In this document: piece after piece, positions 41,437-52,571 of the stretch
Numbering within the stretch: the stretch's first letter is position 1
Layout of the letters: each line of letters begins with the position of its first letter
Source: a virus
Taxonomy: Duplodnaviria > Heunggongvirae > Uroviricota > Caudoviricetes
Length of the DNA: 64,000 bases
Virus record (IMG/VR): IMGVR_UViG_3300028797_000096
Coordinates: 77,860-141,859 of that record
Direction: 5' to 3' (one strand)
Made by a program: the position numbers and the translations under genes
Notes under the pieces: model-generated
What the model was told of the DNA's origin: nothing
Seen by the model: only the letters and a program-made list of their open reading frames with translations
Database searches by the model: none

Positions 41437-42051
41437 ATGAAAAATAAAACAATATTATGGTTATTATTAATTTTTTGGGCAGCGATATTTTTTGTTGCAG
41501 GAATTATAAATGCTAAAGCAGAAAATTGGGTTACTTCACCAAGTAAAATGTATATGCCAGGAAATATTTATAATACAGCAATTATAAATAGTACAAATAC
41601 TGTAAATACTACTTCTAATAATAAATTTGATAGTTGTAAAAATCCAGGTACAGTAAGAAAAATTATAGTAGATAAATCTGATAAAACTTTACAGCTTTTA
41701 GATGTTAATGGATGTATAGTTAAACAATATGATAATATTCGTTTAGGTAAAAATGAAGGACCAAAGCATTGTGAAGGTGATTCTAAAACACCAGAAGGTA
41801 TTTATCATATTATAGAAAAAAGAAATTCTAAGTATGTTAAATTTTTAGCCTTGGATTATCCACAAGCTAAAGATATTAAAAAAGCAAAAGAATTAGGATG
41901 TAAACCAGGTGATTCGATTGGTATTCATAGTTGGATTGAAGGTTTACCAAAAGAAGGTTCACAAGGTTGTATTACTGTATGGACTAAAAAAGATATTCTT
42001 GAAATTAATGATTTAGTTAGTGTAGGTACTGAAGTAGAAATTAGGAAATAA
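41437..42051 (+). CDS. secreted L,D-transpeptidase (YkuD)-like protein
   Basis: signal/TM N-terminus; GDSIGIHSWIEGLPKEGSQGCITVW resembles the YkuD His..Ser.Gly-Cys catalytic region. Confidence 0.45.
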   Translation: MKNKTILWLLLIFWAAIFFVAGIINAKAENWVTSPSKMYMPGNIYNTAIINSTNTVNTTSNNKFDSCKNPGTVRKIIVDKSDKTLQLLDVNGCIVKQYDNIRLGKNEGPKHCEGDSKTPEGIYHIIEKRNSKYVKFLALDYPQAKDIKKAKELGCKPGDSIGIHSWIEGLPKEGSQGCITVWTKKDILEINDLVSVGTEVEIRK

Positions 42052-46402: not shown

Positions 46403-47594
46403 CAAATGAAATCCTAGAACAACTGCTATGACATCTTAGTAATGTTATCAGCTCTAGGTAAAGATACAAGGGGATGAGTTAAATTCGACAGTATATTTTT
46501 ACTGGACTCGGTTTCAATACCGATATCTCCACCATAAAGTTTGGTGATATTTAGTTTATTACGAATAGAACATTTGGTACTAGACCAAAAGAAGCATAAG
46601 GGACATTGCAATATCACCGATACAGTTTACTAAATAATTACAAAAGATTATTTAATTGACTGGCATGATAAATGAACCAGCGAACGATAACTATAAATTA
46701 AGTGCAATAGCTGCTTGATTTAAATAAAGTTATCAATCGGAGCTGGGTAGAGCTTGGCAACAGAATCTACCAAATTTATTTGCGGGCTTAGCTCAAAAAG
46801 TATAGAAAAATATTTGGCTCGTGGGAATGCATAGTGTGTTCACCTGACTGTCACTCAGGAAATCAGATGGGGGCGGTACCCATACGAGTCGCCATAAAGT
46901 TTGGGTAAGTAGTGTGAAGTATAGCACACAGCACACTGGGCTGAAGTGTTAGGGGAAGTGCCTAACCAATAATCCCACCCTCAATTTAGCTGAGACTGCA
47001 GTAGTAGGCTAAATCCCTTGACTAACGTTCCTGGTCAGAACGATCGTCACTAGTCGATAGTAGTCGGAGTTTAATGCAGGTGTGACTTCGTTAGGTTAGG
47101 CCAACTAAATTCTGCATTTTTAATGTTTATACTTATTTCGAGTGAAATAGTCTCGAATGTATTGGTGTTCGACAATACAGCTTGCTGTAACAAGTCCAAG
47201 GGAAAGAATAGGAAACCTGAAAGAGCTCTAGTAAGGTGGAATTGGAAGTATAAATGTTTACTGTTGATATACTTTTATGTATATTAATTTCGGGTTTGAT
47301 AGGCCGGTTAGCTTGTACTCTTACAAGTCAGTGATCTAAATTCCGGGTCTTACTATCATTCTCCGCTTAAATTCCTATTAGCATTAGCTAGTATGGATTG
47401 CCAGAATGTAGAAATGCATTTTTGGTTTTTGGGGTAAAGTTTCAACTACTGATTGGACACCTCAATCCGAACATCACGGAGTTCAGCTAGTGATGCTCGA
47501 CTGAACATATTTCTGGGCCTTGACCAATGGTCGAGGATTTGCCGAGGCTTTTGGTGTTATTGAGCCATCGTAGAGAATCAAAACACCTTTATAT

Positions 47595-47669
47595 TGGCGT
47601 GTAGCTCAACGGCAGAGCTTTCGGCTGTTAACCGAATGGTTGTCCGTTCGAATCGGACCACGCCAGCCA
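47595..47669 (+). tRNA. tRNA-Asn(GUU)
   Basis: TGGCGTG/CACGCCA acceptor, anticodon loop CTGTTAA, GTCCG-TTCGAAT-CGGAC T-arm, encoded CCA. Confidence 0.85.
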
Positions 47670-47676
47670 TGTTTCT

Positions 47677-47751
47677 GGCCCCATCGTCTAATGGTTAGGA
47701 CACCGCCCTTTCAAGGCGAGAATCCCGGTTCAAATCCGAGTGGGGCTGCCA
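47677..47751 (+). tRNA. tRNA-Glu(UUC)
   Basis: GGCCCCA acceptor, anticodon loop CTTTCAA, GGTTCAAATCC T-loop, CCA. Confidence 0.75.
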
Positions 47752-47757
47752 ATTTAT

Positions 47758-47831
47758 TGGAGCATAGTTTAATGGTAGAACCCGGGATTTTGGTTCCCGT
47801 TATCTTGGTCCGAATCCAGGTGCTCCAACCA
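47758..47831 (+). tRNA. tRNA-Gln(UUG)
   Basis: TGGAGCA/TGCTCCA acceptor, anticodon stem CGGGA/TCCCG, loop TTTTGGT, CCA. Confidence 0.8.
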
Positions 47832-48024
47832 TTAAGTTTTACAGAAGTGTCTACTATTAGTTACGTATGAGGCTATAAAGGTAGGAATACGTATCAAAGA
47901 CAGCCTACTAATAAGCACGAAATAATTTTGGTAAGACTTATTAGAGGAAAGTTTTTCTTTTAGCATTGGCTAGAAGTATTACCTGAAAGTTAATATGAAA
48001 AAGTTATTAGCTTTCTTGGTCTAT

Positions 48025-48101
48025 GCTTGTTTAGCTCAGTTGGCTAGAGCATCTGCTTTACACGCAGAGGGTCAGGAGTTCGAGTCTCTTAACAAGCACC
48101 A
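48025..48101 (+). tRNA. tRNA-Val(UAC)
   Basis: GCTTGTT/AACAAGC acceptor, anticodon loop TTTACAC, GGAGTTCGAGTCTC T-arm, CCA. Confidence 0.85.
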
Positions 48102-48124
48102 AAAAATTTAAAAAAAGGAAATTA

Positions 48125-48616
48125 ATGAAAGCAATTTGTCCAAAATGTGGAATAGAATTTGAAAATGATACAAATCGAAAATTTTGTTCAAGAAAATGTG
48201 TAAATAGTCGTAATATTTCACAAGAAACAAAAAAGAAAATTTCAAATAAAATGAAAGCCAGATATCAAGAACCTGAATACAGAAAACAAATTTTGAATTT
48301 AAATAGAAAATTAGGTAATCATTTACATGAAGAAAAATTAAAAAGATTTGTAAAAGCAAAAAATGGGCAAATTTTAGATATTACATATGGGGAATTAGAA
48401 GAATACCAAAAAACTCATTTGGTATGTGAAATTTGTGGTAAAACTGAAATTGCTTCACATAACATAATAAAAAAGATATATCGAAATTATGTCGTGATCA
48501 TGATCATAAAACTTCTAAATTTCGTGGATTATTATGTAGTAATTGTAACAGAAAGTTAGGTTGGTTTGAAAATTTTAAAGATGAAATTTTCAAATATTTG
48601 AATAAAAAGCACCAGT
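48125..48616 (+). pseudogene. NUMOD3 + Endonuclease-VII/HNH-type homing endonuclease with frameshift
   Basis: N-terminal NUMOD3-like SQETKKKISNKMK; frame 2 reads ...LVCEICGKTEIASHNIIKK then must shift to frame 1 (DISKLCRDHDHKTSKFRGLLCSNCNRKLGWF) at the A6 run 48468-48473 to restore the CxxC...DHDH...RGLLC..CN motif. Confidence 0.6.
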
Positions 48617-48682
48617 AGTTTAATAGTAGAATGTAACCTTGCCAAGGTTAAGACCTCGGAGCATAACCGGGTTGGTGCACCA
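48609..48682 (+). tRNA. tRNA-Gly(GCC)-like, atypical arms
   Basis: GCACCAG/TTGGTGC acceptor, perfect anticodon stem TAACC/GGTTA with loop TTGCCAA, CCA; D-arm weak and T-loop AGCATAA non-canonical; overlaps the stop of the HNH pseudogene. Confidence 0.45.
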
Positions 48683-48684
48683 AT

Positions 48685-48774
48685 GGACAGATGGTAGAGT
48701 GGCTGAATACACTGGTCTTGAAAACCGGCATACCAGCAATGGTATCGGGGGTTCGAATCCCTCTCTGTCCGCCA
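48685..48774 (+). tRNA. tRNA-Ser(UGA)
   Basis: GGACAGA/TCTGTCC acceptor, loop CTTGAAA, long variable arm, GGGGTTCGAATCCC T-arm, CCA. Confidence 0.85.
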
Positions 48775-48782
48775 TTTTTTAA

Positions 48783-48872
48783 AGGAGTGGTGGTAGAGCG
48801 GTTTAATACAGCTGATTACTAATCAGCCGAAGCAGTAATGTTTCCGGGGGTTCAAATCCCTCCCACTCCGCC
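48783..48872 (+). tRNA. class II tRNA (Ser-like) with anticodon loop TTACTAA (anticodon ACU?)
   Basis: GGAGTGG/CCACTCC acceptor, GAGCGGTTTAA D-loop as in tRNA-Ser, perfect anticodon stem GCTGA/TCAGC, long variable arm, GGGGTTCAAATCCC, CCA; A at position 34 is unusual. Confidence 0.6.
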
Positions 48873-48888
48873 ATTACTTTATTAATTT

Positions 48889-48923
48889 TGGCCCTGTGGC
48901 GGAATTGGTAGACGCTGCAGACT
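48889..48923 (+). tRNA. tRNA-Leu(UAA) exon 1 (intron-interrupted)
   Basis: GGCCCTG acceptor, GGCGGAATTGGTAGACGC D-arm, GCAGA anticodon stem, loop CUU| ; intron inserted after U34 as in cyanobacterial/plastid tRNA-Leu(UAA). Confidence 0.65.
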
Positions 48924-49628
48924 TAGACGAAAATGAGTGTATCATAATTTATTGAAAAAGTAGTTCTATATCATAAGGAGTTAATCCTATGAAAAATAGA
49001 ATTACAGATCAAGAAATGATTGATATTATCATTAAGTCTCAAACAATGGCTTTAGCTGCTAAAAGATGTGGTATGGCATATACAACATTTATTAGGCATG
49101 CTAAAAGATTGGGTATTTATAAACCTAATCAAGGCGGAAAAGGTACTGAGAAAAAAAGATCTGCTAAAATATCTATAGAAGAAATTTTAGCAGGAAAGTA
49201 TCCTCAGTATCAAACATATAAATTAAAAACAAGATTAATAGATGAAGGATATAAAGAAGATAAGTGTGAGAAATGTGGGTGGTGTGAAAAATTAAAAAAT
49301 AGCAAATATACTCCATGCGAATTACATCATATCGATGGAAATCCTGAAAATCATTTATTATCTAATTTAATTATATTGTGTCCAAATTGCCATTCCTTAA
49401 CTAAATCTTATAGGTTTAGAAGAGGTAAGACTAATGAGCAACAAGGTAGGAAACTTCTCGATTGAATGCTGTCAAATTCGGTGAAAGGTTTTATAATCCT
49501 AACGCCGAGCGAAGCCTAGAAATAGGAACGTGTAGAGACTTAACGGCAGCCACCTAAGTAGAAATATATGGTGAAGACAAAGTCCAGACTACAAACAAGA
49601 AATTGGTAGTGAAAGCTATAGTAGTAAG
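48924..49628 (+). ncRNA. group I intron (Azoarcus / cyanobacterial tRNA-Leu type) carrying an HNH ORF
   Basis: 705 nt; guide GAGT pairs with exon end ACUU (U-G at splice site); core blocks TGTCAAATTCGGTGAAA and GTGTAGAGACTTAACGGCAGCCACCTAAG match the Azoarcus pre-tRNA-Ile intron recalled from memory; terminal G at 49628. Confidence 0.65.
48989..49465 (+). CDS. intron-encoded HNH homing endonuclease
   Basis: CEKCGWCEKL...CELHHIDGNPENHLLSNLIILCPNCH (HNH with two Cys pairs); lies wholly inside the tRNA-Leu group I intron; SD aaggag. Confidence 0.7.
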   Translation: MKNRITDQEMIDIIIKSQTMALAAKRCGMAYTTFIRHAKRLGIYKPNQGGKGTEKKRSAKISIEEILAGKYPQYQTYKLKTRLIDEGYKEDKCEKCGWCEKLKNSKYTPCELHHIDGNPENHLLSNLIILCPNCHSLTKSYRFRRGKTNEQQGRKLLD

Positions 49629-49682
49629 AAAATCTGTTGACAGTTAAATGTCGTACCGGTTCGATTCCGGTCAGGGCCACCA
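49629..49682 (+). tRNA. tRNA-Leu(UAA) exon 2
   Basis: AAAA-TCTGT, variable arm TGACAGTTAAATGTCGT, ACCGG-TTCGATT-CCGGT, CAGGGCC-A-CCA pairing exactly with exon 1 acceptor. Confidence 0.65.
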
Positions 49683-49694
49683 AAAAATTTATAT

Positions 49695-49770
49695 GGGGTT
49701 GTAGCTCAGTTGGTAGAGCATCTGCTTTGCAAGCAGAGAGTCGTCAGTTCGAGTCTGATCAGCTCCACCA
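49695..49770 (+). tRNA. tRNA-Ala(UGC)
   Basis: G3-U70 wobble identity pair, anticodon loop TTTGCAA, CCA. Confidence 0.8.
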
Positions 49771-49771
49771 T

Positions 49772-49848
49772 AGGAAGGTAGTTCAGATGGTTAGAATGTC
49801 GCTCTGATACAGCGAAGGTCGTGAGTTCGAATCTCACTCTTCCTACCA
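49772..49848 (+). tRNA. tRNA-Ile(GAU)
   Basis: AGGAAGG acceptor, anticodon loop CTGATAC, GTGAGTTCGAATCTCAC, CCA. Confidence 0.8.
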
Positions 49849-49856
49849 TAGTTTAT

Positions 49857-49932
49857 GCCTGCTTAGTTCAGTTGGTAGAACGACTGATTTGTAATCAGTA
49901 AGTCGGCGGTTCAAGTCCGTCAGCAGGCACCA
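49857..49932 (+). tRNA. tRNA-Thr(UGU)
   Basis: GCCTGCT/AGCAGGC acceptor, anticodon loop TTTGTAA, CCA. Confidence 0.8.
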
Positions 49933-50321
49933 GAGATTAGTAGGTAATCGTAGTATAGAGATAAAAGCCTTGAATCGTATATCCAATATATTTGAATGGA
50001 CGCCGTAGTCAGTAAAGGGACCTACTAAGTAAGAGATTTTGATAATAAAAAATAGGTTGAGCACATAGTGTTAACTCCAGGTTAGTCATGACTGCTGAGC
50101 ACAGACCGATCATGAAGTAACATACTTGAAACGATAGAGTAGGGTTACAGTTATCAAAATAGTGTTGGGGTAGAGTCTATATAATATATTAAGCATGTTT
50201 ATGCAATCCTTGGATGTTTATATTTGATTGACTCTACAACAATTTTAACCGGATATTAGTGAATGATAATTATTTATTATGCCTAATATCTATAAGTCTA
50301 AGAAAAACATAAGGAAAAAAT

Positions 50322-50747
50322 ATGTTTATTAATACAAATGGAGGTTTGATTGATACTCCAGAACGCTTAATCAATCATTTTGCATCTCTTCCTGAATATA
50401 CTGATATTCAGAAGTCTTTAATTGAAGATCATTGTGCTTGCTGTGCTAAAAGCTTTGCTAGAGGTGTTGGTAAAGTTACAAAAGAAGAGGTATGGTTTGG
50501 TGCTTTAGATGTGTTTCCATATATATCTAATAAGCATGAATTTACCAATGAAGATTTTTTAATTAAAAGATGGGGTATTGATTGGCAAAAAGCTAGGTTA
50601 AAAGAAAGACCAGATGTAGATATTGATAAATCTACTAAAAGTCAATTAGGAAAGATTTTTTACGATGCCTTATTGAGAGATAAAAACGCTATTTATAAAT
50701 GGCGTAGAGTAGAAGGCAAATATTTTGAATATTGTCGTATAAAATAG
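50322..50747 (+). CDS. hypothetical protein
   Basis: 141-aa ORF within tRNA island; CACCAK motif. Confidence 0.5.
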   Translation: MFINTNGGLIDTPERLINHFASLPEYTDIQKSLIEDHCACCAKSFARGVGKVTKEEVWFGALDVFPYISNKHEFTNEDFLIKRWGIDWQKARLKERPDVDIDKSTKSQLGKIFYDALLRDKNAIYKWRRVEGKYFEYCRIK

Positions 50748-50835
50748 TTCAAATATAAAAGGGTGGGACAATTGCTATGATGTTTTAGTAACATTATCAA
50801 TCCCACCCAATGAGTTTAAAATAAGAGGTAAAATC

Positions 50836-51108
50836 ATGTCATTTAACCGTAAACAAACACCAATTGCAACAAACGATCATTGGAATTTATATTTATTAGG
50901 ATTTTGTAAAGAAAATGTTCGTAAAGCTGTGTTAATTAATTATCTTACTAATGATGAATTATCTGCAAAAGTTAATGTAGGTGCAGATATTACTGGTAAA
51001 AATACACAATATACTGTAATTGAAGCGGTTGATGAAAAAACAAATCATTTAGTTGATTTTACTAAAACATTTGTTGTTCCGGGTAAATATGTTAAAACTC
51101 GTGGATAA
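50836..51108 (+). CDS. hypothetical protein
   Basis: 90-aa ORF, SD aagaggtaaaatcATG. Confidence 0.5.
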   Translation: MSFNRKQTPIATNDHWNLYLLGFCKENVRKAVLINYLTNDELSAKVNVGADITGKNTQYTVIEAVDEKTNHLVDFTKTFVVPGKYVKTRG

Positions 51109-51377
51109 TAAATATTAAAAGTTTTGGTCTTATAGGTCAAAGACTAAAATGACGGGGACAGCCTGAAGATAGGAGGCTGCTGCTTGGATCGGCAATATAG
51201 GGTCTCACAAAATACATAAGATTGACCTCACAGTGTTTTCACGCTGATAATCTTATGGTGAGTGTATGCAAAACCTGATTGAGTTGGTTCAAATCCAGAC
51301 AGTTAGGTAGGCAAGGTGTTGGAGCATGAACACACTTAGATGGGTTGCTCCTTATAGTTTTATAGGAAGGATATGAT

Positions 51378-51611
51378 ATGAAAGATATATGTACTGAAAT
51401 TATAAAAGAGTTAGAAAAAATGGGATATACTGCATTTCAAATAACTCCAGAGATGTCTATTCATGAAGATTTAGGTTTAGATTCATTAGATACTATTGAA
51501 TTGGTTGCTAAATTAGAAGAAAAATTTGATATTCGTATAAAAGATGATGATTTAGTAGATGTAAAAACGATTCAAGATATTGTAGATATTGCTAATAAAT
51601 ATTTAAAATGA
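51378..51611 (+). CDS. acyl carrier protein
   Basis: 77 aa acidic; phosphopantetheine attachment motif DLGLDSLDTIELVAKLEEKFDIRI. Confidence 0.8.
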   Translation: MKDICTEIIKELEKMGYTAFQITPEMSIHEDLGLDSLDTIELVAKLEEKFDIRIKDDDLVDVKTIQDIVDIANKYLK

Positions 51612-51734
51612 GAGTTTAACCGATAAAAGAAATAGTTCTATATAATATGAAAAAAATAAATGTATGTTTTTGGCCATGCTTTCCTAGTACCTTTGGAGGT
51701 AAGTGTTAATCATACTTTTATAGAAGATTAGATA

Positions 51735-51764
51735 CCTCCAGAAATAAAAAGCTGGAGGTTTTTT
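51735..51764 (+). terminator. rho-independent terminator after the ACP gene
   Basis: CCTCCAG-aaataaaaag-CTGGAGG then TTTTTT. Confidence 0.8.
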
Positions 51765-51853
51765 AATTGAGTTTGGTAGTTGTAGTATAATCAATACACT
51801 TCCCAATGGGGTAGAAGAGATGTAAGTAAAATCTTATCGATTACCACAGTTTA

Positions 51854-51931
51854 TCGGAATGTAGGATAATCTGGTTATTCCGCCTGTTTTGGGTACAGGA
51901 GACTCCCGGTTCAAATCCGGGCATTCCGACC
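51854..51931 (+). tRNA. tRNA-Pro(UGG)
   Basis: CGGAATG/CATTCCG acceptor, anticodon loop TTTGGGT, CCCGGTTCAAATCCGGG, CCA. Confidence 0.8.
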
Positions 51932-51937
51932 AGTTTT

Positions 51938-52014
51938 TGGCTGGGTAGCTCAGTTGGTAGAGCAAGGGACTGAAAATCCCTGTGTCAGTGGTTCGATCCC
52001 GCTCTCAGCCACCA
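51938..52014 (+). tRNA. tRNA-Phe(GAA)
   Basis: GCTCAGTTGGTAGAGC D-arm, anticodon loop CTGAAAA, CCA. Confidence 0.85.
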
Positions 52015-52019
52015 ATCTT

Positions 52020-52093
52020 GGCCAGGTGGCAGAATGATTATGCAGAGGACTGCAAATCCTTGTACATCGGTTTGATTCCGGTCCTGGCCTCCA
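52020..52093 (+). tRNA. tRNA-Cys(GCA)
   Basis: GGCCAGG/CCTGGCC acceptor, anticodon loop CTGCAAA, discriminator U, CCA. Confidence 0.75.
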
Positions 52094-52098
52094 AATCT

Positions 52099-52172
52099 AG
52101 GTCATTAGTTTAGTGATAAAACAAAGATCTCCAAAATCTTAGTCGGTGGTTTGATTCCATCATGACCTGCCA
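52099..52172 (+). tRNA. tRNA-Trp(CCA)
   Basis: AGGTCAT/ATGACCT acceptor, anticodon loop CTCCAAA, CCA. Confidence 0.75.
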
Positions 52173-52303
52173 TTATTTTGGAAATTTAGTTAAAAAAAGT
52201 ATTTACAAATAAAAATAAATGTATATAATATATAATATCTACTTGCTGCCATACTAGATTTCCCAGTTACCATCGTAGTAAGTACAGCAAGTAGGTAGTT
52301 TAT

Positions 52304-52380
<77 letters not shown>

Positions 52381-52571
52381 AGATTTATAAGGTCTTGAAA
52401 GTTGGTGTCAATGCTTTCTGGATTAAATTCCAAAGACCTTGCCAGTTTAAGGGTTATTGTCGTATTTAACCAATTATTTTTGCTCTTCAATAACCCTTAA
52501 TTCATTGCTTTCAAGAAGAAAACCTCGACTAAAGTTCTATTAAATATAGGATTTTTATCGGGGTATTTTTT

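Follow-up and report, generated by a model that had tools for sequence, protein, structure and literature searches.

A serine tRNA with the anticodon ACU and a glycine tRNA with an alternative elbow in the tRNA array of an AT-rich phage: candidate members of two variant families

Wobble rules and surveys of tRNA repertoires bar adenosine at anticodon position 34 (A34) from two-codon boxes, AGY among them. Two reasons are usually given: inosine at this position (I34) would misread the codons of the neighbouring amino acid, and A34 left unmodified is held to be unfavourable. In the AGY box, a review of tRNA sets describes A34 as "universally missing". The one standard bacterial A34 tRNA is tRNA-Arg(ACG), whose A34 is normally converted to I34, and an orthogonal tRNA with an ACU anticodon has been engineered on an archaeal tRNA-Tyr body (Schmitt, Tittle and Fisk 2024, PMC11066159). 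Unusual D and T loops are described for the staphylococcal non-proteinogenic (NP) tRNA-Gly, which serves peptidoglycan cross-bridges (PMC7826273). Here we report two genes that lie in one tRNA array within a 64,000-nucleotide stretch of a Caudoviricetes virus (IMG/VR record IMGVR_UViG_3300028797_000096, positions 77,860 to 141,859), hereafter called the window: a class II tRNA-Ser(ACU) and a tRNA-Gly(GCC) with an altered elbow (Table 1). Judging from their sequences and those of their relatives, both are probably functional phage-encoded elongator tRNAs that belong to recurrent variant families. An earlier note had called the two genes atypical tRNAs, and this is borne out, both scoring above the 29-bit gathering threshold of the Rfam tRNA model RF00005 (E-values below refer to the 64-kb window).

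The serine gene was typed as Ser by ARAGORN and aligned with the whole Rfam model (48784-48870, model positions 1-71 of 71, E=8e-9). The class II serine assignment made in the earlier note therefore stands, although its coordinates, 48783-48872, were one base off. The anticodon loop UUACUAA (U32 U33 A34 C35 U36 A37 A38) is a 7-nt loop closed by the 5-bp stem GCUGA/UCAGC, and ARAGORN and Rfam agree on this register, which is also the one first read from the letters. The layout is that of an AGY reader, N34-C35-U36 with U33 and A37. Serine identity is set by a long variable arm and G73, independently of the anticodon. In this gene the variable arm CGAAGCAGUAAUGUUUCC folds as a 6-bp hairpin, G73 is followed by an encoded CCA, and RNAfold returns a class II cloverleaf with a minimum free energy of -32 kcal/mol (z=-3.5). 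Charging by the host seryl-tRNA synthetase would be expected from the variable arm and G73. The gene shares its class II form, long variable arm, G73, U33 and C35-U36-A37-A38 with tRNA-Ser(GCU), the normal AGY reader whose slot it fills in phage tRNA arrays; it differs in having A34 for G34, in forming separate lineages and in being predicted to read AGU only, as opposed to AGU plus AGC.

The earlier note suggested that A34, once deaminated to inosine, would read AGU, AGC and AGA. Deamination by the host TadA or by a phage enzyme would either broaden AGY decoding or put serine at AGA, and the loop does resemble a TadA substrate in U33-A34-C35 and in A37-A38 (PMC8007984); moreover, additional A34 tRNAs are deaminated in some bacteria (PMC11066159). 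However, the TadA substrate reads U33-A34-C35-G36-A37 and position 36 is U here, and E. coli TadA left the ACU anticodon unmodified in an otherwise Arg2-like loop, only AGU being read (PMC11066159). Codon usage was counted over 70 open reading frames (ORFs) of the window: AGU occurs 341 times and AGC 41 times. AGA is the commonest arginine codon (264/490, 54%), which also speaks against I34. At 56 orthologous positions AGA was aligned with arginine in 38 cases, with lysine in 9 and with serine in none, and recoding of AGA to serine was rejected for this reason; stop-codon usage in the window looks standard. No [HC]AE...PCxxC motif (CDA/TadA) was found in window ORFs of at least 60 aa, which argues against a phage-encoded TadA within the 64 kb scanned, the whole genome measuring 136 kb or more. 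In bacterial loci of the Candidate Phyla Radiation (CPR) that carry Ser(act), the arginine gene was Arg(gcg) wherever an Arg GCG/ACG gene was seen, and never Arg(acg). Inosine at position 34 is thus very unlikely. While tRNA-Arg(ACG) has the same A34-C35, 7-nt loop, U33, A37 and A38, the window gene departs from it in U36, in its class II form, in its serine identity and in belonging to a split box where I34 would misread AGA.

From codon usage and from the behaviour of the engineered ACU tRNA, we infer that Ser(ACU) leaves A34 unmodified and reads AGU alone. In E. coli, and without conversion to inosine, that tRNA read AGU at 9.4% and AGG at 0.36%, AGC and AGA being below detection (PMC11066159); its preference for AGU over AGC was at least 95:5. 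The two share the anticodon, but the engineered molecule is built on an artificial tRNA-Tyr body, whereas the serine tRNA of the window is natural and conserved. In the mechanism that we propose, A34 would stay unmodified and pair with AGU by Watson-Crick geometry, and N6-threonylcarbamoyladenosine at position 37 (t6A37) is probable because U36-A37 is present. The rare AGC codons would be left to the host tRNA-Ser(GCU). The two codons could be shared out in this way since there would always be an isoacceptor with G34 at hand, supplied by the host in the case of phages and by the same genome in the case of CPR bacteria. AGU is the top serine codon of the window, with 37% of all serine codons. 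Moreover, none of 77 viral Ser(act) loci had a GC content of 0.50 or more, compared with 11 of 64 Ser(gct) loci (p=1e-4), and the low GC range (<0.50) of the Ser(act) loci is where AGU dominates AGY.

The ACU anticodon is not restricted to this phage. At least 120 IMG/VR contigs match a pattern made of the YUACUAA loop and a canonical T-arm; among the matches listed, a limit that applies to all the counts of this and the next paragraph, 88 of 121 loci held a validated class II Ser(act) gene, and Ser(gct) stood beside it in only one viral locus. When position 34 was left free, 120 IMG/VR loci yielded about 15 validated Ser(act) genes against 76 Ser(gct) genes, so that roughly 16% of viral AGY-type serine tRNAs have A34. 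The nearest neighbour of a Ser(act) gene was another Ser(act) gene in 111 of 118 cases, which indicates persistent lineages rather than sporadic G34A mutants. The earlier note held A34 to be almost unknown in bacterial tRNAs outside Arg(ACG); it is so regarded, but this widespread family had been missed. As a separate observation, other A34 anticodons occur sporadically in the IMG/VR loci L002-L235, namely Leu aag three times and Asn att, Cys aca, Tyr ata, Gly acc and Thr agt once each.

In contigs of the GTDB collection with one genome per species, 38 of 120 matches were validated as Ser(act), many of them from Patescibacteria/CPR and including contigs of more than 1 Mb. The remaining 82 matches were discarded as not being tRNAs, a number consistent with chance in 596 Gb. 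Ser(gct) lay within 8 kb in 19 of the validated cases, and the two genes were just 60-80% identical, which points to Ser(act) as an old additional isoacceptor in these bacteria. Four loci from CPR or CPR-like genomes (L264, L307, L352 and L330) carry, along with Ser(act), clusters of Ser gga, cga, gct and tga genes plus Arg(gcg) and Arg(ccg). CPR genomes with Ser(act) may lack TadA-dependent decoding, which would guarantee an unmodified A34.

Among cultured phages, the serine genes matched in a non-exhaustive BLAST search with the whole tRNA and with the anticodon arm were all of the Ser(GCT) or Ser(TGA) type, in S-H9-2, S-PM2, phiA8-29 and Vibrio 1.023.O; it found no isolate phage with Ser(ACT), the anticodons of S-CREM1 and PBECO4 being left out of this count. 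The open-access literature searched held no description of Ser-ACU/ACT in phages or CPR, nor of an elbow with A54/U58 or with G55 and its D-loop partner at position 18. Both families thus appear to be undescribed, and the Ser(ACU) family is in contradiction with the stated generalisation on tRNA repertoires.

Relatives of the window were recovered through a 141-aa ORF that lies inside the array. A protein search in assemblies of gut/rumen type gave relatives with identities of 62-89%, from which the encoding contigs were taken; an IMG/VR locus search queried with the same ORF gave no match. At 66% protein identity, the loci L362-L364 have their tRNA genes arranged as in the window: Val, Gly(GCC), Ser(UGA), Ser(ACU). 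Compared with the window gene, their Ser(ACU) has changed in three stems (acceptor, anticodon and T), each time with compensation, and the anticodon and variable arm are unchanged.

The glycine gene departs from the norm in another part of the molecule. The earlier note had reported a Gly-like tRNA at these positions with the anticodon loop UUGCCAA and the T-loop AGCAUAA, and each of these details is exact. Rfam aligned it over model positions 1-71 of 71 (E=1.7e-7), with the lowest score in the array; ARAGORN made no call for it, because its T-loop is non-canonical. The acceptor stem GCACCAG/UUGGUGC includes A3:U70 and is followed by A73 and an encoded CCA. The D-stem GUUU/GAAU has four pairs, two of them G.U (G10.U25, U11-A24, U12-A23, U13.G22), and encloses the D-loop AAUAGUA with A18 and G19; the T-stem CUCGG/CCGGG encloses the loop A54 G55 C56 A57 U58 A59 A60. 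Of the canonical elbow (G18-G19, T54-pseudouridine-55-C56, A58), only G19:C56 is kept, G18/U55 being replaced by A18/G55 and U54/A58 by A54/U58. In our reading the cloverleaf is normal, the contacts G18:U55 and U54:A58 would be swapped for A18:G55 and A54:U58, and the L-shape is presumably preserved. The tRNA would read GGU and GGC, which together make up 73% of the glycine codons of the window.

The same elbow recurs in other tRNAs. The orthologue in L362 has the T-loop AGCGUAA with the same D-loop type, A3:U70 and A73; the locus L369 carries a variant Gly(GCC) beside a canonical one, and the Gly(GCC) genes of L358 and L366 have the canonical elbow. In IMG/VR, UUGCCAA followed by GGAGCAUAACC was found at six loci, which represent five distinct Gly(GCC) sequences whose stems differ and whose D- and T-loops are the same. 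A scan of 3.2 Mb of retrieved loci also detected tRNAs for His, Gln, Phe, Ile, Lys and Glu that have the A54-G55-C56-R57-U58 elbow. Together with 18 others the window gene carries an AGC.U T-loop, and all 19 have an AG D-loop (A18-G19).

Covariation supports the structure of this variant. In an alignment of ten sequences (the Phe member was left out, as MAFFT had mis-aligned it), 99.5% of the cells of the Gly-family cloverleaf were paired and 17 of 21 pairs had changed on both sides; the covariation score was 0.92 as against 0.24 for shuffles, and none of 500 shuffles reached the observed value. The tertiary contacts were examined in a set of 918 class I tRNAs, all of them distinct and parsed. 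A GG D-loop accompanied U55 (838 tRNAs against 14) and an AG D-loop accompanied G55 (30 against 4; Fisher p=8e-41), and the 54/58 pair was U/A in 859 tRNAs and A/U in 31. From this covariation, to which we owe the pair geometry, we infer that A18:G55 and A54:U58 are compensated tertiary swaps. Since both swaps are compensated and G19:C56 is kept, the gene appears to be neither a pseudogene nor a minimalist tRNA.

Further elbow types were noticed in the viral loci L002-L235: AUCGUUA and its relatives (A54, U55, U58, GG D-loop) occurred 16 times, UGCRAAU (U54, G55, A58, AG D-loop) about 17 times (initiator-like Met tRNAs among them), and AUCGAAA (A54, A58) in 9 tRNAs.

Eukaryotic initiator tRNAs keep A58 and pseudouridine-55/G18. 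They share with the window Gly(GCC) an A54 in place of the universal T54; the window tRNA differs from them in U58, in G55/A18 and in being an elongator. A closer likeness in one respect is offered by the staphylococcal NP1-3 tRNA-Gly, which also have G55 for U55 and non-canonical D and T loops, with UGC or UGU for UUC and no pseudouridine, and which are discriminated via their D and T arms (PMC7826273). The variant-elbow Gly could accordingly be a non-proteinogenic glycine donor or a decoy that binds EF-Tu and the ribosome poorly. The coexistence of a canonical and a variant Gly(GCC) in L369 fits split roles, and a YkuD-domain protein (L,D-transpeptidase fold) is coded in the window. Against this, other phages have tRNAs for His, Gln, Phe, Ile, Lys and Glu with the same elbow, which speaks for a general property and makes a glycine-specific role less likely. 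In addition, the gene is the sole glycine tRNA of the window and its anticodon suits nearly three quarters of the glycine codons, and reports of the NP lineage are confined to staphylococci, where its anticodon is UCC (PMC7826273). The NP tRNAs further have U54, whereas the window tRNA combines the anticodon GCC with A54/U58 and the loop AGC and comes from a gut/rumen phage. We regard a role of this kind as improbable and retain that of an elongator.

Several observations weigh against functional tRNAs of recurrent families. With GC regressed out, the AGT fraction is equal in Ser(act) and Ser(gct) loci, so that codon adaptation explains where A34 is tolerated and not why it was chosen; the same regression detected no codon-adaptation gain of A34 over G34 at equal GC. 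The frequencies rest on scans of IMG/VR and of the genome collection that covered sequences of a set pattern (T-loop GGTTCRAATCC, loop YTNCTAR), and on the matches listed, up to 120 per scan, with validation by ARAGORN. RNAfold alone does not form the Gly D-arm (z=-1.2); this, and the two G.U pairs, agree with the weak D-arm of the earlier note, but the 4-bp stem is backed by the covariation of its homologues. As to identity, the bacterial glycyl-tRNA synthetase recognises C35, C36, U73, G1:C72, C2:G71 and G3:C70. The window Gly(GCC) has C35, C36, G1:C72 and C2:G71 and lacks two elements, with A73 for U73 and A3:U70 for G3:C70. A73 is also found in the canonical-elbow Gly(GCC) of related phages, and distant variant-elbow Gly genes (L122, L123, L125, L126 and L131) have GCG.../U73. 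Glycine identity is likely from the anticodon and the family context. Finally, the Ser(ACU) gene of L369 (62% identity) has two acceptor-stem mismatches, and some Ser(act) copies, such as this one, may be decaying.

Whether its elbow is canonical or variant, every tRNA-Gly(GCC) gene in this group of phages (L358 8521-8595, L366 9219-9295, L369 6949-7023 and the window gene) has A73, which may reflect the type of glycyl-tRNA synthetase of the host.

One or both genes could thus be decaying pseudogenes or chance tRNA-like sequences, the earlier note having offered a pseudo-tRNA or minimalist tRNA for the glycine gene. The failure of ARAGORN to call that gene, its low Rfam score and the mismatches in L369 would fit, as would L358 (85% identity), where no Ser(act) gene was found in the 13.7 kb examined. 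On the other hand, both genes are kept in L362 with compensatory changes in their stems, both have an encoded CCA and stand in register within the array, and the unusual bases are invariant in unrelated phages while the stems vary. The D- and T-loop bases that look odd in isolation are coordinated, compensated and found in many phage tRNAs, as the tertiary covariation reported above makes clear. Decay or chance is therefore highly improbable for the window genes.

The elbow swaps remove the sites of Gm18, m5U54, pseudouridine-55 and m1A58 together with the canonical T-loop signature, and from this loss we would expect that the tRNA does without, or evades, some elbow-reading factor of the host. 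The rewiring could dodge a modification enzyme or a T-loop nuclease of the host. Both variants might even serve mainly to escape host defences that target tRNAs, A34 evading an anticodon nuclease that recognises G34 of Ser(GCU) and the rewired elbow evading a nuclease directed at the T-loop or elbow. Phage tRNAs have been proposed, and sometimes shown, to resist anticodon nucleases via loop changes (PMC10264068; PMC11555353). Moreover, the window codes for a tRNA-repair enzyme of 733 aa (Table 1), which suggests that this phage is under pressure from tRNA damage; taken together with the published nuclease-evading tRNAs, the enzyme makes escape from a host factor plausible. A candidate nuclease for Ser(GCU) or the T-loop is not among the evidence, and defence does not explain why Ser(ACU) is chromosomal beside Ser(GCU) in CPR bacteria. 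As the main function of both variants, escape from defences is unlikely; it is nevertheless compatible, as a selective driver, with two functional elongator tRNAs.

In related phages, genes for a carbamoyltransferase (Carbam_trans_N/C) and a 687-aa radical SAM protein were observed 2.5-3.6 kb upstream of the tRNA arrays (L358 1250-4936; L366/L367 1-4383), L366/L367 also having a MiaB/MtaB-like protein (UPF0004 + Radical_SAM). These proteins may be phage-encoded tRNA modification enzymes.

More tentatively, and with rather less confidence than we have in the two genes being functional, we propose a joint picture. Ser(ACU) would be a natural, ancient and widespread reader of AGU with unmodified A34, present in many phages and in Patescibacteria, and phages would maintain tRNAs with a compensated elbow unable to take any of the universal elbow modifications, possibly as a counter-defence; neither has apparently been described. 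With about one sixth of the AGY-type serine tRNAs in the viral sample (among the matches listed) and chromosomal copies in CPR, Ser(ACU) would offer a natural system for studying decoding by unmodified A34 in vivo, and it bears on annotation, on models of phage-host codon usage and on the engineering of the genetic code at AGU. The compensated elbow would mean that the 'universal' signature G18/T54/pseudouridine-55/A58 can be replaced. It would also explain why tRNA finders that expect a canonical T-loop miss real phage tRNAs, and the elbow may be a front in the conflict between phage and host.

The two genes stand in an array of 16 tRNA genes, made up of 14 ARAGORN calls, the variant Gly and an intron-split Leu(UAA); the Rfam tRNA model found the same 14 and, as a fifteenth, the Gly-like gene. 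Neither program found a Ser(GCU) gene or a second Gly tRNA in the 64-kb window.

Table 1. Positions of the two tRNA genes and of other features in the window.
Feature	Position	Strand	Evidence or detail
tRNA-Gly(GCC), alternative elbow	48609..48682	+	Rfam 49.2 bits at 48609-48679
tRNA-Ser(ACU), class II	48784..48873	+	ARAGORN tRNA-Ser(act); Rfam 54.0 bits
tRNA array, 16 genes, including the two above	47595..52380	+	ARAGORN, Rfam
tRNA-Ser(UGA), canonical class II neighbour	48685..48774	+	ARAGORN; Rfam 55.7 bits
tRNA-Leu(UAA) split by group I intron	48890..49682	+	exons 48890-48924, 49629-49682
Polynucleotide kinase (PNK) + phosphatase + RNA ligase fusion, 733 aa	35240-37441	+	phrog_8238, E=6e-175
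PP-binding ORF / upstream ORF	51378-51611 and 41437-42051	+ / +	first ORF PP-binding, 77 aa

The window is a segment of an AT-rich phage genome (GC 24-34%), and a 136-kb contig of the ENA assembly ERZ27257207 contains a stretch 100% identical to it. Its coded proteins include a major head protein, an HNH endonuclease, the PNK-phosphatase/RNA ligase fusion and a peptide deformylase. Megablast of the region 47500-52500 against INPHARED gave only short tRNA matches, which indicates that the region has no close cultured relative there.

The Leu(UAA) gene went uncalled by both ARAGORN and Rfam in its unspliced form. Its exons, once spliced, form an 89-nt tRNA-Leu(taa) according to ARAGORN, and UUA makes up 66% of the leucine codons of the window. 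The group I intron (48925-49628, 704 nt, last base G; Rfam Intron_gpI, 65.1 bits at 49397-49609) is inserted between U34 and A35, which we take to be the insertion site of the cyanobacterial and plastid tRNA-Leu intron, and contains an HNH-type ORF of 158 aa at 48989-49465.

An endonuclease VII/HNH-like ORF (48125-48616, + strand), placed between the genes for tRNA-Val and tRNA-Gly, appears frameshifted. The ORF at 48125-48559 closes with ...CEICGK..., whereas the motif DHDHKTSKFRGLLCSNCNRKLG runs on in another frame as far as a stop codon at 48616, so that it overlaps the first part of the Gly tRNA gene; a homing endonuclease in decay is the probable identity. The tRNA-repair type fusion enzyme is located about 10 kb upstream of the array. 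A 77-aa acyl-carrier-protein-like ORF (PP-binding) lies inside the array, and the YkuD-domain protein and the peptide deformylase lie upstream of it.

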